Positions 34,058-39,017 of a DNA stretch of 64,000 bases are shown piece after piece. The position numbers were made by a program, and so were the translations under genes. The DNA lies in assembly GCA_963717145.1 (NCBI GenBank), contig OY970325.1, positions 2,112,001-2,176,000 on the forward strand, given 5' to 3'. How positions within the stretch are numbered: position 1 is the first letter of the stretch; each line of letters starts with the position of its first letter. The DNA comes from an uncultured Armatimonadetes bacterium. GTDB taxonomy: Bacteria; Armatimonadota; UBA5829; DTJY01. A model generated the notes under the pieces. The model had not been told where the DNA came from. It made no database searches and worked only from the letters and a program-made list of their open reading frames with translations.

Positions 34058-34073
34058 CATAGGGCAGAATGGA

Positions 34074-34157
34074 TGGGGAATGGTTGATGGTTCATGGTTG
34101 ATGGGGAGGCCAGTCTCCTTCCCCATTAGCCATCAACCATCAACCATTCCCCATTCC
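34074..34157. repeat. Heptamer palindrome, family E
   Basis: GGGGAATGGTTGATGGTTCATGG...CCATCAACCATCAACCATTCCCC. Confidence 0.88.
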
Positions 34158-34172: not shown

Positions 34173-35243
34173 ATGCCAGTCAAGATCGCAATCATCGGCG
34201 CCGGCAAGTTCGGAGAGGTACATCTCAAGACGTTCAAGCAGCTCGAGATGCTGGGAGTCGCCGAGCTTAAGGGCTTCAGCACTGTCAAGCAGAACGAGAT
34301 CGACCTCTACGAGCCGATGTACGGCGTCAAGGGGTACCTCGACTACAAGGAGATGCTGGCAAAGGAAGATATCGACGGCGTCACGGTCGTCACCCCGGAC
34401 TTCCTCCACCGCGAGATAGCCGTCTACGCCGCGAACCAGGGCAAGCATATCCTCTGCGAGAAACCGCTCGATGTCACCGTCGAGGGCTGCACCGAGATGA
34501 TCGAGGCAGCGAAGAGGAACAACGTCTTGCTCGAGGTCGACTTCCACAAGCGTTACGACCCCGATCACTTGGCGGTCGAAGCCGGAGTCCGCGCCGGGAA
34601 GATCGGCGACCCGCTCTACGGCCAGTGCTACATGGAGGACCGCATCGAGGTCCCTGTCGACTGGTTCGCTCACTGGGCGCCGCACGGATCGCCTGTGTGG
34701 TTCCTCGGCAGCCACTTCGTCGACCTCATCCGCTGGATCATCAAGTCGGACGGCGAGTCGGTCTACGCCACCGGGAGCAAGAAGAAGCTGCTCGGCGAGT
34801 TCGGCATCGACATGTACGACTCGGCGAGCGCCAAGGTCGTCTTCAAGAACGGCGCTTCGTTTTCGTTCGACGTCTCGTGGATCATCCCCCGCAAGTTCGA
34901 AGCGATCGTCAACCAGGGCATGCGGATCGTCGGCACGGACGGCCTCTGGGAGGTGGACAGCCAGGACCGCGGCGACCGATCGTGCTCCCAGGACGACGGG
35001 ATGCGCACCTGGAACAACAACTTCATGCGCGAGGAAAAAGACAAGCACGGTCGAACCATATACAGGGGCTACGGCGTCGAGAGCATCGCGGATTTTGCCT
35101 ACAACGTCGAGTTCCTGAAGGATGGCGGGACGCTCGGTGATCTCGCCGGCAAGTATCCCTCAGGCGAGGATGGCCGCGAGGTGACCCGCATCTGCGCGGG
35201 GATTCACAAGAGCATGGAGACCGGCGAGATCATCAGGCTATGA
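34173..35243 (+). CDS. Gfo/Idh/MocA oxidoreductase
   Basis: IAIIGAGKFG, VVTPDFLH, HILCEKPL, SHFVD; AAGGAGG RBS. Confidence 0.93.
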   Translation: MPVKIAIIGAGKFGEVHLKTFKQLEMLGVAELKGFSTVKQNEIDLYEPMYGVKGYLDYKEMLAKEDIDGVTVVTPDFLHREIAVYAANQGKHILCEKPLDVTVEGCTEMIEAAKRNNVLLEVDFHKRYDPDHLAVEAGVRAGKIGDPLYGQCYMEDRIEVPVDWFAHWAPHGSPVWFLGSHFVDLIRWIIKSDGESVYATGSKKKLLGEFGIDMYDSASAKVVFKNGASFSFDVSWIIPRKFEAIVNQGMRIVGTDGLWEVDSQDRGDRSCSQDDGMRTWNNNFMREEKDKHGRTIYRGYGVESIADFAYNVEFLKDGGTLGDLAGKYPSGEDGREVTRICAGIHKSMETGEIIRL

Positions 35244-35248
35244 TTCTG

Positions 35249-35477
35249 AACTGGTCGCATTTTGCGACCAGTTGGGTGTCAGGTTATAAGTATAAATCAT
35301 GCCACGGGTTGGCTGGAGTACATCTTGAGATCACAGAATGTGATCTCAAGTGCCCGGCAGTCAATGCGTTTGAGGTTGCATTCTGCAACCTCAAACCGAA
35401 TCCACTATGGCCAGTTTTGTCCTCCCGTGGAGTCTTTGAGGTCGCATTCTGCGACCTCAAAGACTCCACGGGAGGAC
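35249..35477. repeat. Array of four perfect palindromes with 3-nt centres, related to an internal ORF6N segment
   Basis: 35249-35273, 35324-35350, 35369-35395 and 35419-35477; fifth copy at 35699-35731 inside the gene. Confidence 0.9.
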
Positions 35478-35495
35478 TTCGAACGGAGGCATCTA

Positions 35496-36068
35496 GTGAC
35501 AGAAGCAGAGCAGTCTCTTGTACCTGTTGAGGCAATTGCCGGATTGATCCTTGTGCTCCGTGGACAGAAGGTCATTCTCGACGCGGACTTGGCGCATCTG
35601 TATGGCGTCACCACCAGACGCCTCAATGAGCAGGCAAAGCGCAACCGCGAACGGTTTCCTGACGATTTCGTGTTTCAGCTCAACGATGAGGAGACACAGA
35701 ACTTGATGTCGCATTTTGCGACATCAAGTTCCTCAAGACACGGAGGCCGTCGGAAGAACCCTTGGGCCTTCACAGAACACGGCGCACTGATGGCAGCCAT
35801 GATCTTGAACTCGCCAACCGCAGTCGAAGCAAGCGTCTACGTCGTTCGGGCGTTCATCCGGCTGAGGGAACTGCTCTATACACATGCCGAACTGTCACAC
35901 AAGCTCGCCGAACTGGAATCCCGAGTGGACCACCATGATGACGATATCGCCATGCTGTTGGAGGCGATCCACCAGCTCCTGACCCCGCCCGAGCCGCCCC
36001 CACAGCGGAAGATCGGATACCGTGTAAGAGAACCCGGACGCCGTTACGTAGTGAGCCGCAAGAACTAG
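35496..36068 (+). CDS. ORF6N (KilA-N-like) DNA-binding domain protein
   Basis: LRGQKVILDADLAHLYGVTTRRLNEQAKRN.ERFP.DFVFQL...GGRR..P.AFTEHG; GTG start with GGAGG RBS. Confidence 0.92.
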   Translation: MTEAEQSLVPVEAIAGLILVLRGQKVILDADLAHLYGVTTRRLNEQAKRNRERFPDDFVFQLNDEETQNLMSHFATSSSSRHGGRRKNPWAFTEHGALMAAMILNSPTAVEASVYVVRAFIRLRELLYTHAELSHKLAELESRVDHHDDDIAMLLEAIHQLLTPPEPPPQRKIGYRVREPGRRYVVSRKN

Positions 36069-36080
36069 AGGAGAGAGATC

Positions 36081-37400
36081 ATGCCTGTACCAAGTATCAA
36101 GACCGAGCTTCCCGGGCCGAATGCCCAGAGATTCATCGAAATGTCGCGGCAGTACGAGCCGAATTCGATGTCCGACCAGGTGCCCGCCGTCTGGCAGCGC
36201 GCCGAGGGCGTCGTCGTCGAGGACGTCGACGGCAACACGTTCATCGACTTCACGTCCGGCGTGCTGGTGACCAACATCGGTCACTGCCATCCCAAGCAGG
36301 TGGCGGCGATCCGGGAGCAGGCCGGCGAGGTCATGAACTCCTACGATTTCGTGAATCCCTGGCGGGCTCAGCTCGCGAAGAAGCTCGTCGAGATCACCGC
36401 CGACAACCTCGATAAGGCGTTCATCCTCTCCACAGGCGGCGAGGCGGTTGAAGCAGCGATCAAGGTCGCCCGACGTTACACCGGCAAGTACGAGGTCATC
36501 GCGTTCCACGGCGCGTTCCACGGGCGCACGTACATGGCGATGAGCGTCGGCGGCAAGCAGGGCATCAAACGCGATTTCGGGCCGATGGTGCCCGGCGTAC
36601 TCCATGCGCCGAATGCCTACTGCTATCGGTGCATATTCGACCAGAAGTTTCCCGACTGCAACTACACCTGCCTGCGATACCTCGACCGCCTGATCGAGAC
36701 CGAAAGCACCGGTAACGTCGGCACGCTGATCACCGAGTCGTATCAGGGCGGCGCGGGCTCGATCATCCCGCCGGGCGAGTATATGCAGCGCCTGAAGAAG
36801 TGGTGCGAGGACCGGGACATCCTCTTCATCCTCGACGAGGTTCAGTCGTCGTTCGGCCGCACGGGCAAGATGTTCGCATACGAGCACTGGGGCATCAAGC
36901 CGAACCTGCTGACGCTCGGGAAGGGAATCGGCAGCGGAGTCCCGATCTCGGCGCTCGTCGGCGAATCGAAGATCTTCGACGTCCTGGAGCCGGGCAGCAT
37001 GTCGAGCACCAGCGGCGGCAATCCGCTCTGCTCCCGGGCGGCGCTCACCTCGATTCAGGTCATCGAGGAGGAGAAGCTGGTCGAGAAGTCGAGGAAGTCC
37101 GGCGAGTTGATGCTCGATCGCCTCAACGAAATGATGCGCAAATACGAGATGATCGGAGATGTCCGGAGCATGGGCCTCGTCGCCGGCGTCGAGATCGTGA
37201 AGGACAAGGCGAGCAAGACGCCCGATGCCGCCGCGACGAAGCGGATCACCGAGGAGGCGTTCCGGCGCGGGCTGATCATGATCGCGCCGATCGGGTTCTA
37301 CGGCAACGTCCTGCGCATCGCCCCACCGCTTGTGATCTCAGAGGAGCACCTCAACAAGGGCCTCGACATCATGGAAGATGTGATCAGAAACCTGTCATAA
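36081..37400 (+). CDS. Class III PLP aminotransferase (GabT-like)
   Basis: DVDGN.FIDF, GHCHP, GGEAVEAA.K, FHGRT, ILDEVQSSFGRTG, LGKGIG. Confidence 0.93.
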   Translation: MPVPSIKTELPGPNAQRFIEMSRQYEPNSMSDQVPAVWQRAEGVVVEDVDGNTFIDFTSGVLVTNIGHCHPKQVAAIREQAGEVMNSYDFVNPWRAQLAKKLVEITADNLDKAFILSTGGEAVEAAIKVARRYTGKYEVIAFHGAFHGRTYMAMSVGGKQGIKRDFGPMVPGVLHAPNAYCYRCIFDQKFPDCNYTCLRYLDRLIETESTGNVGTLITESYQGGAGSIIPPGEYMQRLKKWCEDRDILFILDEVQSSFGRTGKMFAYEHWGIKPNLLTLGKGIGSGVPISALVGESKIFDVLEPGSMSSTSGGNPLCSRAALTSIQVIEEEKLVEKSRKSGELMLDRLNEMMRKYEMIGDVRSMGLVAGVEIVKDKASKTPDAAATKRITEEAFRRGLIMIAPIGFYGNVLRIAPPLVISEEHLNKGLDIMEDVIRNLS

Positions 37401-37881: not shown

Positions 37882-38925
37882 ATGCCTGTACCTGATCTGC
37901 ACGAACGACTCGAGACACTCGATGCATTGGTGGACCCGGCGCACGTGGCCGAGTCCGAGCGGCTGCTGGAGGATGCGCTCCTCTATCGCGAGGTTTCACG
38001 ACTCCCTATGATCGAAGCCAAAGGCGTGGAGGGATGGCCGACGTACCCCTACTCGGAGGCATTCCACGACATCGAGAAGATGCTCATCAACGAGTTGGCC
38101 AGCATCTACGTCGGCGCGAATCTGCGGGACGACCGAATGTACACCATCCGCGCGAACTACGGCGTCGGTGCGATGGCCTCGCTGTTCGGCTGCAAGACCT
38201 CGCTCACGATGAACAACATGCCCTGGTGCGAGGCGCTTTCCGAGCGGGAACTCCTCAGAGCGCTCGACCGGGGCGTCCCGGATGTGACGACCGCCGGTCT
38301 CGGTTCGCGGGTATTCCAGACCGAGCGTTTCTACCTGAGTACGCTGTCGGAGTACCCAAACCTGAGCAAGGCCGTCAAGATCTTCATGTGCGACACTCAG
38401 GGGCCCTTCGATACGGCGCATCTGGTCATGGGTCATCGAATCTACACGGAGATCTACGACAACCCCAACCTGGTGCATCGCCTGCTCGATCTCGTCACAG
38501 AGACCTCCAACCGGTTCACTCATGCGCAGAAGAAGCTCATCGGCGAGGGGAACGAGTGGAGCTTCCACTCCCAGACGAGGGTTCGCGGCGGCATCAGAAT
38601 CTGCGAGGACGCGCCGACGAACATCTCAGGCGACTCATACGTGGAGTTCTGCCGGCCATACAATGAGCGCGCGCTCGCGGAGTTCAGCGGCGGATGGATC
38701 CATTACTGCGGGAACGGCCGCCAGATCCTCCCGCACGTCCTGGATACACCGGGCGTGCTCGGCATCAACTTCGGCAACCCCGAGATGCAGGACCTGGATG
38801 CGCTCTACGAGGTGACCCGCGAGCGGGGAATCGGCATCATAAGCTGGAGCGGACCGTTCACACCGGAGCAGGGCGACCGCATGCGAACCGGCATCAGCCT
38901 GATCGGAAAGCGGGGGAATGGTTGA
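37882..38925 (+). CDS. Uroporphyrinogen decarboxylase/MtaA-CmuA superfamily protein
   Basis: DTQGPFDTA, IYDNP.LVH.LL, ICED, F..PY, IHYCG. Confidence 0.8.
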   Translation: MPVPDLHERLETLDALVDPAHVAESERLLEDALLYREVSRLPMIEAKGVEGWPTYPYSEAFHDIEKMLINELASIYVGANLRDDRMYTIRANYGVGAMASLFGCKTSLTMNNMPWCEALSERELLRALDRGVPDVTTAGLGSRVFQTERFYLSTLSEYPNLSKAVKIFMCDTQGPFDTAHLVMGHRIYTEIYDNPNLVHRLLDLVTETSNRFTHAQKKLIGEGNEWSFHSQTRVRGGIRICEDAPTNISGDSYVEFCRPYNERALAEFSGGWIHYCGNGRQILPHVLDTPGVLGINFGNPEMQDLDALYEVTRERGIGIISWSGPFTPEQGDRMRTGISLIGKRGNG

Positions 38926-39004
38926 TGGTTGATGGTTCATGGTTAATGCGGGACGGGAGCGGTCTCCCATTAACCATGAACCATCAGCCATCAACCATTC
39001 CCCC
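38914..39004. repeat. Heptamer palindrome, family E (supplies the upstream stop codon)
   Basis: GGGGAATGGTTGATGGTTGATGG...CCATCAGCCATCAACCATTCCCCC. Confidence 0.88.
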
Positions 39005-39017
39005 TGAGGGAGCAACC

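Follow-up and report, generated by a model that had tools for sequence, protein, structure and literature searches.

The window analyzed herein is a 64,000-nucleotide stretch of DNA from an uncultured Armatimonadetes bacterium (contig OY970325.1) whose genome comprises 5.37 Mb on one contig and carries a single ORF6N gene. This gene resides in an islet (positions 35244-36068) wedged between oxidoreductase and class-III aminotransferase genes of a metabolic operon (Table 1). A first-pass annotation, made from the letters of the sequence alone, had described the islet as an AT-rich interruption of an oxidoreductase-aminotransferase operon that carries five related palindromes, and this description is accurate. 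Pfam assigns the flanking genes to the GFO/IDH/MocA and class-III aminotransferase families, and the GC content of the islet is 0.49-0.55 compared with 0.60-0.65 for its flanks. All five perfect inverted repeats, each with a 3-nucleotide (nt) center, are present within 483 base pairs (bp; 35249-35731), four of them (P1 to P4) in the leader ahead of the ORF6N gene and one within the gene. Because every copy is perfect, each difference between copies is mirrored in both arms, as had been claimed.

P1 begins 5 nt past the oxidoreductase stop codon, and sequence homology between the copies in the window stops at the palindrome boundary. The inner cores of P2 and P3 differ from that of P4 only by transitions (G to A, C to T) located at or beside CpG, and the outer 16 nt of each P4 arm (GTCCTCCCGTGGAGTC) are found nowhere else in the genome. 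As previously noted, P2 through P4 are free of stop codons in the frame of the gene (open reading frame, ORF, 35262-36068), with center spacings of 45, 66, and 267 nt that are all multiples of three, and P1 reads WSHFATS in another frame. A whole-genome scan revealed 277 perfect repeats with 3-nt centers and arms of at least 10 nt, most of which belong to an unrelated REP-like family. The search for solo copies that had been proposed came back empty, in that this genome contains no further member of the ORF6N palindrome family even at 10 of 12 arm matches. Elsewhere in the genome, the 15-nt core is matched at C1:948419, but the arms there measure only 6 nt and this site was rejected as a family copy.

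Table 1. Features of the ORF6N islet and its flanking genes. The CG, CA, and TG classes refer to half-site positions 9-10.
Feature	Coordinates	Strand	Description and basis
GFO/IDH/MocA-type oxidoreductase gene, upstream in operon	34174..35243	+	Pfam PF01408, PF22725, PF02894; stop codon 35241-35243
P1 (leader)	35249..35273	.	11-nt arms, AACTGGTCGCA-TTT-TGCGACCAGTT; inner core GGTCGCA, CG class; outer arm of rAACyGG class
P2 (leader)	35324..35350	.	12-nt arms, CTTGAGATCACA-GAA-TGTGATCTCAAG; inner core GATCACA, CA class
P3 (leader)	35368..35396	.	13-nt arms, GTTTGAGGTTGCA-TTC-TGCAACCTCAAAC; inner core GGTTGCA, TG class
P4 (leader)	35419..35477	.	28-nt arms; family core 35435-35461, TTTGAGGTCGCA-TTC-TGCGACCTCAAA, GGTCGCA, CG class
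Shine-Dalgarno-like GGAGG	35486..35490	+	Sequence; 5 nt ahead of start codon
ORF6N gene, 190 amino acids (aa), probable GTG start	35496..36068	+	PF10543; PDC-S05; start aligned with syntenic ATG codons
Predicted DNA-reading helix, residues 40-49 (TRRLNEQAKR)	35613..35642	+	AlphaFold (AF2) confidence score ~96; mutual information, contingency tables, independent pairs
Internal palindrome	35699..35731	.	15-nt arms, GAACTTGATGTCGCA-TTT-TGCGACATCAAGTTC; encodes NLMSHFATSS, then SSRHGGRR; core TGTCGCA
Two long helices, residues 107-162, presumed coiled-coil pairing region	35814..35981	+	AF2 secondary structure
ORF6N 3' end (SRKN-stop) and aminotransferase ribosome-binding site	36053..36074	+	22-nt string intact in gene-less relative G001 (junction comparison)
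Class-III aminotransferase gene, downstream in operon	36081..37400	+	PF00202, E 1.6e-108

Translation of the ORF6N gene probably starts at GTG 35496, with which the starts of syntenic orthologs align (MTEAEQSLVP in metagenome contig L115 and MTEYSLVP in the relative G009). If so, the four upstream palindromes are leader DNA rather than coding sequence. In the 268-aa ORF, Pfam detected no remnant of an ORF6N domain ahead of residue 1. Such leader palindromes mislead gene callers, as exemplified by the database copy of this protein (P0001), which is listed at 234 aa. The protein is a clear match to Pfam PF10543 (108.2 bits with a cut-off of 27.8, E 2.5e-31; residues 18-102 covering profile positions 3-85 of 86), and Pfam otherwise reports only a weak Rha match, with no KilA-N match at E values up to 10. 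The PHROG label for ORF6N is 'anti-repressor'. The family is abundant, with one search returning 7957 relatives at E ≤1e-5 among 8000 scored candidates.

An AlphaFold model built from an 84-sequence alignment has a mean predicted local distance difference test score (pLDDT) of 77.8. It predicts a confident small alpha/beta domain that includes helices 29-36 and 40-49, an ill-defined stretch at residues 72-89 (pLDDT 56-70), and two long helices (107-144 and 149-162). The residues encoded by the internal palindrome (69-79) would form the end of helix 64-71 and a loose loop, outside helix 40-49. This loop location fits the tolerance of substitution and frame switching described below. A profile search of Protein Data Bank (PDB) sequences yielded designed coiled coils only (best E 1.6e-4).

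A palindrome within ORF6N genes is a family-wide feature

To place the internal palindrome in context, 187 ORF6N loci were compared: nine from the genomes of relatives, 80 from genome contigs of many phyla, 18 from viral contigs, and 80 from metagenome contigs. For each locus, the best repeat with a 3-nt center was sought in the 90 nt that follow the conserved FQL codons, and 12 arm pairs were scored. At least 11 of the 12 pairs match in 169 of the 187 loci. The first set of 107 loci contributes 94 of these (59 with 12 pairs and 35 with 11) and the metagenome set of 80 contributes 75 (41 with 12 pairs and 34 with 11). Random 90-nt windows from the same loci reach this level in only 10 of 409 cases. 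Choosing the best repeat per window favors high scores, but the fixed position of the palindrome, whose center in 83 loci of the first set lies 42 nt past the F60 codon, argues against an artifact. The first-pass annotation had called for other ORF6N loci to be examined, with the prospect that they might lack both palindromy and flanking copies. For palindromy the opposite is found, and flanking copies occur in a minority of loci.

Symmetry of this kind is no by-product of the encoded peptide, because synonymous redraws of the codons fall far below what is observed. Family-wide, 11.46 of 12 pairs match on average versus 5.19 expected, and 98 of 101 loci lie at or below the 1% level. In the window gene, all 12 pairs match versus 5.9 expected, a value that none of 300 resamples attained. 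Furthermore, among 111 distinct sites, 95.7% of the cells pair, compared with 74.3% in shuffles and 24-42% when partners are slid. Bases changed on both sides in 246 cells (55.5 expected; 0 of 500 shuffles reached this number), and 9 of the 12 pairs are involved. These paired changes alter the protein: Ser/Ala, Ser/Val, Leu/Ala, Cys/Gly, and Phe/Gly combinations follow TCG/GCG, TCA/GTG, TTG/GCA, TGC/GGC, and TTC/GGA.

The same core is also translated in two registers. The main register reads LRSQxATS, and a minority of loci, in which the core is shifted by two bases, read EVVANCDHL. The latter register (offset 40) is used by 11 of the first 107 loci and, among the last 80, by five at offset 40 and one at offset 37. 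Because one core is kept in two reading frames, it is the DNA and not the peptide that is conserved. Judging from these comparisons, the internal palindrome is selected at the DNA level across the family. In the literature searched, no account of such a palindrome in ORF6N genes came to light.

Several individual loci depart from the common arrangement. In the relative G052 (locus L010), the internal palindrome has been lost and the peptide there reads GSMADAAPPKRGGTRK. A perfect palindrome with 14-nt arms (TTTGATGTCGCA-TTT) is located 34 nt ahead of the aligned start on contig C3 of that genome, and two more lie farther upstream. Some family members (loci L041, L042, L072, L088, and L189 and protein P0112) carry a second or third tandem palindrome in the coding sequence, 27-63 nt past the first and often of another class, which lengthens the loop region in frame. 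Two metagenome loci (L163 and L182) have a stop codon within the stretch encoded by the palindrome (QWKS*IATSN and NLM*QIVISR) and palindromes that have decayed to 9-10 of 12, and these two genes are likely to be pseudogenes.

Palindrome sequences co-vary with a predicted DNA-reading helix

Co-variation between protein and palindrome was assessed with 136 non-identical proteins of the main register. Residues 69-87, which are encoded by the palindrome or are adjacent to the segment it encodes, were set aside in the ranking by mutual information. The highest values with half-site bases were obtained for residues 41, 42, 45, and 46, which occupy one face of helix 40-49. Of 106 proteins with Arg42, 104 have G as half-site base 10, and 29 of the 30 proteins with another residue 42 have A or C there. 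Likewise, Glu45 is accompanied by CG at positions 9-10 (94 of 95), Gln45 by CA (22) or TG (9), and Lys41 by [A/G]G at positions 6-7 (80 of 80). The CA class goes with proteins that have Gln45 and lack Arg42, and the TG class with those that have Arg42 and Gln45.

Shared ancestry was addressed with an independent-pairs test on a tree built without the helix and palindrome columns. Arg42 and G10 change concordantly in 5.9 of 6 pairs (p 0.03), Glu45 and CG in 6.9 of 7 (p 0.016), and Lys41 and G7 in 5.1 of 9 with none opposite (p 0.06). Among the listed controls of ten, columns 135, 142, and 153 show the site base changing the same way in only 0.1-0.4 pairs. The outer five half-site bases fall into three classes (yTTrA, AGGTGG, and rAACyGG) between which the helix is unchanged, and hence the helix seems to read the inner seven bases. 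This co-variation makes it most likely that the palindromes are binding sites of the ORF6N protein. The protein encoded in the window has R41, R42, and E45. By this co-variation, the internal site, P4, and P1, which carry the CG expected for R42 and E45, would fit the resident protein.

Palindromes in a leader could also serve as nucleic acid structures, perhaps as RNA hairpins that affect stability, processing, or translation, or perhaps as DNA cruciforms akin to REP elements. The RNA fold of the whole leader is indeed far more stable than shuffled sequences (-150 kcal/mol, z = -12), with P4 forming the main stem and ending 9 nt ahead of the ribosome-binding site, and other hairpins reside between operon genes of this genome (34066-34152 and 38915-39008). 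Nevertheless, we consider a purely structural role improbable. The base sequence is conserved beyond what pairing demands, and residues of the helix co-vary with it. Among 55 mismatches in imperfect internal sites there are 11 G-T wobbles and 22 A-C mismatches, and this lack of a wobble excess makes selection at the RNA level unlikely. Members of the palindrome family are also found upstream of, inside, and downstream of genes with centers in both orientations. No Rfam 15 family reaches its gathering score in the window leader (generic hairpin matches score 25-35 bits against thresholds of 67-100), and the copies in this genome are confined to one locus, unlike those of REP elements.

The islet is old at its site

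An ORF6N gene occupies the same site, between orthologous flanking genes, in four lineages including that of the window (Table 2). The four filled loci yield ratios of nonsynonymous to synonymous substitution rates (dN/dS) of 0.08-0.10, with dS above 2 or not computable. Neutral positions are therefore scrambled, yet every leader retains palindromes. Empty sites, for which the first-pass annotation had suggested searching, exist in four relatives, whose flanking genes are directly adjacent without ORF6N. One of these relatives (G001, oxidoreductase 92% identical) has a 32-nt gap that retains the 22-nt string corresponding to the SRKN-stop end of the window ORF6N gene plus the ribosome-binding site. 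Because this string represents an ORF6N end, and because close ORF6N homologs end alike (RRYVVNRRN), the gap can be regarded as a deletion scar. The shared site and the deletion scars together indicate that the islet is old at this position and has been lost by deletion. In another relative (G006, L197), the oxidoreductase and aminotransferase frames abut without a stop codon at the junction (~2580-2586; EIVKL-A-MIPNIKT), which suggests a fused or tightly overlapped gene pair after loss of the islet.

Table 2. ORF6N loci at the same site between orthologous flanking genes. Identities are to the window proteins.
Locus	ORF6N identity	Oxidoreductase identity	Aminotransferase identity	Leader length	Leader palindromes
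G000 (window)				about 252-258 nt	4
G009	72%	74%	84%	178 nt	4 (one at 10/12)
G007	67%	78%	83%	158 nt	3
L115 (metagenome contig)	73%	87%	83%	53 nt	1

The syntenic leaders share some characteristics and not others. In all four, the palindrome nearest the oxidoreductase gene abuts its stop codon, and every leader has one copy of the CA class. The intervening spacers vary in both sequence and length, and palindromes in frame 0 amount to 5 of 12, which is about what chance predicts. The frame relationship noted for P2 through P4, true as it is in the window, has therefore not been kept in orthologs.

These comparisons bear on one proposal of the first-pass annotation, namely that the upstream copies are a cassette reservoir, exchanged with the copy in the gene so as to vary part of the DNA-binding domain, or else mark the termini of a mobile unit. 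Such a function would be in accord with the stop-free, in-frame arrangement of P2 to P4 and with the relatives that have two or three tandem palindromes inside the gene. However, it now appears extremely unlikely. The encoded segment (residues 69-79) is a low-confidence loop rather than the reading helix, homology between copies ends at the palindrome, and the orthologous leaders show the in-frame arrangement at no more than about the chance level. Moreover, the site is fixed in four lineages with scars of deletion, no sign of islet mobility was seen among the syntenic and empty relatives compared, no integrase or transposase is detected beside the islet among the neighboring ORFs and their Pfam matches, and the genome has no solo copy. 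Contigs from four soil sequencing runs matched the islet in short fragments, none of which covers 35276-35416.

A proposed operator-like role for the palindromes

We assign a probability of roughly 55% to the reading that the palindromes are ORF6N binding sites with an operator-like role. In this model, the five palindromes would be copies of an ORF6N-family binding site of 25-27 bp with an odd-numbered center and an inner core of approximately GGTCGCA-N3-TGCGACC. The N-terminal domain, presumably similar to a winged helix, would read one half-site with helix 40-49, such that R42 and E45 correspond to C9-G10 and residue 41 corresponds to positions 6-7. The long helical tail would then pair two subunits, probably as a dimer, on the two arms. 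The intragenic site, placed in codons for a flexible loop, might serve as the primary, cognate site, to which the four leader copies directly behind the upstream stop codon would add local sites.

How binding might affect expression can be considered from the promoter evidence. The 53-nt leader of L115 leaves no room for a promoter, and hence the gene there would be read through from the operon. Given such read-through and the lack of a promoter-like site of its own, the bound protein would most likely form an operator or road-block complex. This complex could limit ORF6N synthesis and perhaps that of the downstream gene as well. Mirror symmetry is probably maintained both by selection for binding of a symmetric dimer and by hairpin-templated (quasi-palindrome) correction during replication. 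The latter process would also explain arm growth, as with the 28-nt arms of P4. Quasi-palindrome template switching, as described in PMC7202029, is an established mutational route that copies changes from one arm to the other and lengthens arms. It explains symmetry, but neither the conservation of particular bases nor the association with the gene.

Numerous observations weigh against an operator-like role, beginning with the leader itself. No sigma-70-like promoter was detected in the leader (35244-35495) by a scan that covered sigma-70-like sites rather than the promoter types of this phylum, and the single promoter-like site (35215-35244) lies within the upstream gene. A terminator scan of the leader was likewise negative. 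By the same co-variation that matches the internal site, P4, and P1 to the resident protein, P2 (CA) and P3 (TG) would fit other members of the family, since these are the classes of Gln45 proteins. Structural searches also offer little to strengthen the assignment of a DNA-binding fold. Foldseek found no match in the PDB at E ≤0.001, and VIA-align gave weak matches (Z 5.0-5.9) to the N-terminal domain of baculovirus Orf22, the DNA-binding domains of pSK1 Par and RacA, MerR-type domains, and Dachshund/Ski.

Palindromes outside ORF6N genes present further difficulties. A good internal site is present at 165 distinct loci, of which 120 have no extra copy in the flanks covered, and a leader array thus appears unnecessary for the function of the family. 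The remaining 45 loci have at least one further family palindrome (one in 37, two in 4, three in 2, four in the window, and five in one locus). The window array is therefore the second largest in the sample, after that of the metagenome locus L168/L170. The latter has five extra palindromes of several classes, four of which lie 30-857 nt upstream and one 221 nt downstream. The 60 extra copies are mostly upstream (40, typically 22-160 nt before the start), with 14 downstream and 6 within the gene, and their centers occur in both orientations. Loci with a degenerate internal site are not significantly enriched for a flank copy (6 of 18 versus 38 of 165, p 0.38). The extra copies are also not matched in class to their own genes, which runs counter to the notion that every leader copy is a cognate operator. 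Concordance is observed in 29 of 60 cases when 26.8 +/- 3.2 are expected, and in 10 of the 25 copies within 120 nt upstream. Genes of the CG class have 11 CG and 11 CA copies upstream.

Consensus sites that lack a nearby gene also count against this role. The exact 25-nt consensus TTGAGGTCGCA-N3-TGCGACCTCAA is present in 6 viral stretches and in genome stretches that number at least 120 and represent a wide range of bacteria along with some archaeal bins. Of 91 occurrences, drawn from 86 loci with flanks, 57 are inside the coding sequence of an ORF6N homolog, 11 are upstream, 4 are downstream, and 19 are in loci without ORF6N, four of these near contig ends. Pfam detected no ORF6N among 103 nearby ORFs of 18 solo loci. 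Three out of five genomes that contain a solo site have an ORF6N gene at another locus, and its palindrome is different or absent in all three. For this reason the solo sites resemble leftovers more than parts of a regulon, and they may mark the positions of lost ORF6N genes. The solo loci (L229, L247, L251, L255, L233, and 13 more) lie between unrelated genes such as thiolase/ChlI, NUDIX/asparagine synthase, and GH18/choice-of-anchor.

The other alternative in the first-pass annotation was a set of autoregulatory operators, recognized by a protein that has its own site within its gene. In light of the evidence above, the part concerning the gene's own site fares well at the level of sequence, being in agreement with the family-wide palindromes, the base sequence kept in non-coding copies, and the helix co-variation. 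The autoregulatory part is less secure, given that no promoter-like site is seen in the leader and that extra copies are not class-matched.

Possible relics or a mixed panel of sites

Given these difficulties, P2 and P3, and perhaps the whole array, might be unused by the resident protein. They could be local duplicates or leftovers of old alleles that drift by transitions and are kept perfect by hairpin-templated correction. This proposal, which is compatible with the other readings, is possible, albeit doubtful. Consistent with it are the transitions that distinguish P2 and P3 from P4, the absence of own-class preference among extra copies, the lower frequency of perfect arms in these copies (27 of 91 versus 86 of 146 internal sites), the persistence of solo consensus palindromes among unrelated genes without a cognate gene, and the variation in leader copy number from one to four among syntenic loci. 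The template-switch mutations reported in PMC7202029 provide an established means of keeping arms alike. However, arm matches of the extra copies are bimodal, with 80 at 10-12 of 12, only 11 half-decayed copies at 7-9, and a chance mode below. The CA-class copy has also been kept in all four syntenic loci despite saturated synonymous sites, and non-coding copies retain the specific family sequence, its signature being carried by 68 of 82 inverted repeats collected without bias outside coding sequences.

Another speculation is that ORF6N proteins and their palindromes form cognate pairs of protein and DNA tag with a readable code (Arg42/Glu45 with TCGCA, Gln45 with TCACA or TTGCA, and residue 41 with positions 6-7). 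Perhaps the leader is then a deliberately mixed panel, comprising the protein's own class and two foreign classes, that responds to or soaks up ORF6N proteins from phages or mobile DNA as a layer of cross-recognition or decoys. We regard this as quite unlikely at present.

Comparison with a phage defense protein that recognizes its own gene

A different outcome of binding would arise if the palindromes were self-marking or immunity elements of a defense protein, as aba is for BstA. The inseparable intragenic site would switch off the protein on any DNA that carries it, leader copies would raise the local dose, and non-cognate leader copies could cover other family members. Several facts make this prospect attractive. 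The window protein matches the PADLOC candidate defense family PDC-S05 (PDLC04856, E 7.5e-48, model positions 4-175 of 177), and one PDC-S05 representative is described as reducing T7 and T5 plating approximately 1000-fold (bioRxiv 10.1101/2024.09.26.614923). BstA, as presented in PMC8585504, offers a precedent: its N-terminal domain binds DNA, and its cognate element overlaps the gene that encodes it, as the internal palindrome at 35699-35731 does here. In that account, aba acts as DNA, BstA homologs each have their own version, and several copies are needed in trans. Furthermore, the intragenic site of ORF6N genes is universal and leader copies are optional, and many site classes co-vary with the helix in the manner of cognate pairs.

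Regardless of these parallels, a self-marking function seems rather unlikely for the window gene. The PDC-S05 representative that was assayed carried a RhuM domain, according to the same preprint, and might belong to another subfamily. BstA is prophage-borne and about twice as long, whereas the ORF6N gene, known here from its sequence, is chromosomal, inherited vertically within a metabolic operon, and, by the Pfam matches of its metabolic neighbors, has no phage genes beside it. In such a stable setting, self-immunity during lytic replication would have no obvious use. The element described for BstA (PMC8585504) also differs, since aba is a non-palindromic 63-bp sequence that lies between direct CCCGCC repeats where its gene begins, whereas the element here is a perfect palindrome of 25-33 bp in mid-gene with extra copies in the leader. 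Finally, the window protein gives no Pfam match to KilA-N, although ORF6N and KilA-N may be akin.

Other systems with sites in translated DNA

Returning to the operator-like role, we note that sites within genes have precedent. The lac O2 operator within lacZ and the gal OI operator within galE are auxiliary operators in coding sequence, parS is located in parB/spo0J, and the lambda origin is located in gene O. Like these, the ORF6N palindrome is a symmetric or repeated site in translated DNA near the gene it would serve, and its upstream and internal copies could be bridged. The ORF6N site differs in being conserved across a family that spans many phyla, in being read in two frames, and in co-varying with the reading helix. 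The pSK1 Par and RacA proteins (8csh, 5i41) combine a small N-terminal MerR-like winged helix with a long helical tail, much as predicted for ORF6N, and their PDB titles name centromere or DNA complexes. However, the match is weak (Z 5.3-5.9 over 53-56 residues), the sequences are unrelated, and the role of these proteins is in DNA segregation.

From its sequence, the system would appear to be of the kind in which a DNA-binding protein has a cognate site in its own gene. For PDC-S05 and ORF6N, of which the window protein is a clear profile member, no mention of a conserved palindrome in the genes was seen in the literature searched. ORF6N is a very large family labeled only 'anti-repressor' or 'candidate defense', and a site that is locked within the gene, kept symmetric at a cost in amino acids, read in two frames, and matched to a helix offers a direct and inexpensive entry to its function. 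The window itself adds the second-largest leader array among the loci sampled, four syntenic loci suitable for evolutionary footprinting, and deletion scars, along with extra copies that are not class-matched to the gene and solo sites that resemble relics. If it is true that the sites are self-marks of a defense protein, then the principle known from BstA and aba would extend to a much wider family.

REP-like repeats and operon hairpins of the same genome

The REP and REPIN elements of this genome share several properties with the ORF6N palindromes, including short perfect arms, 3-nt centers, mirrored variation, and frequent placement between operon genes. They differ in being dispersed in hundreds of copies, whereas the ORF6N palindromes occupy one locus and track the ORF6N gene across phyla. 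The abundant REP-like family (NGGGNNGGAGT-NNN-ACTCCNNCCCN; for example, C1:552014/552054 and 756004/756043) accounts for the majority of the 167 perfect repeats found genome-wide whose arms measure 11 nt. Its copies often form pairs spaced by about 40 or 64 nt, in which the 3-nt center is inverted (TGG/CCA, TGT/ACA), and variation in their arms is mirrored.

Hairpins of another type, at 34066-34152 and 38915-39008, are long and imperfect, are built from GGTTGATGG / CCATCAACC units, and lie in gaps between operon genes. When translated, they produce spurious peptides that include HQPSTIP and lengthen ORF calls. The oxidoreductase gene, whose orthologs in relatives are 74-92% identical, probably starts at ATG 34174, which has AGGAGG in front of it. 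A longer version of its ORF, listed from 34080, crosses the intergenic hairpin repeat.

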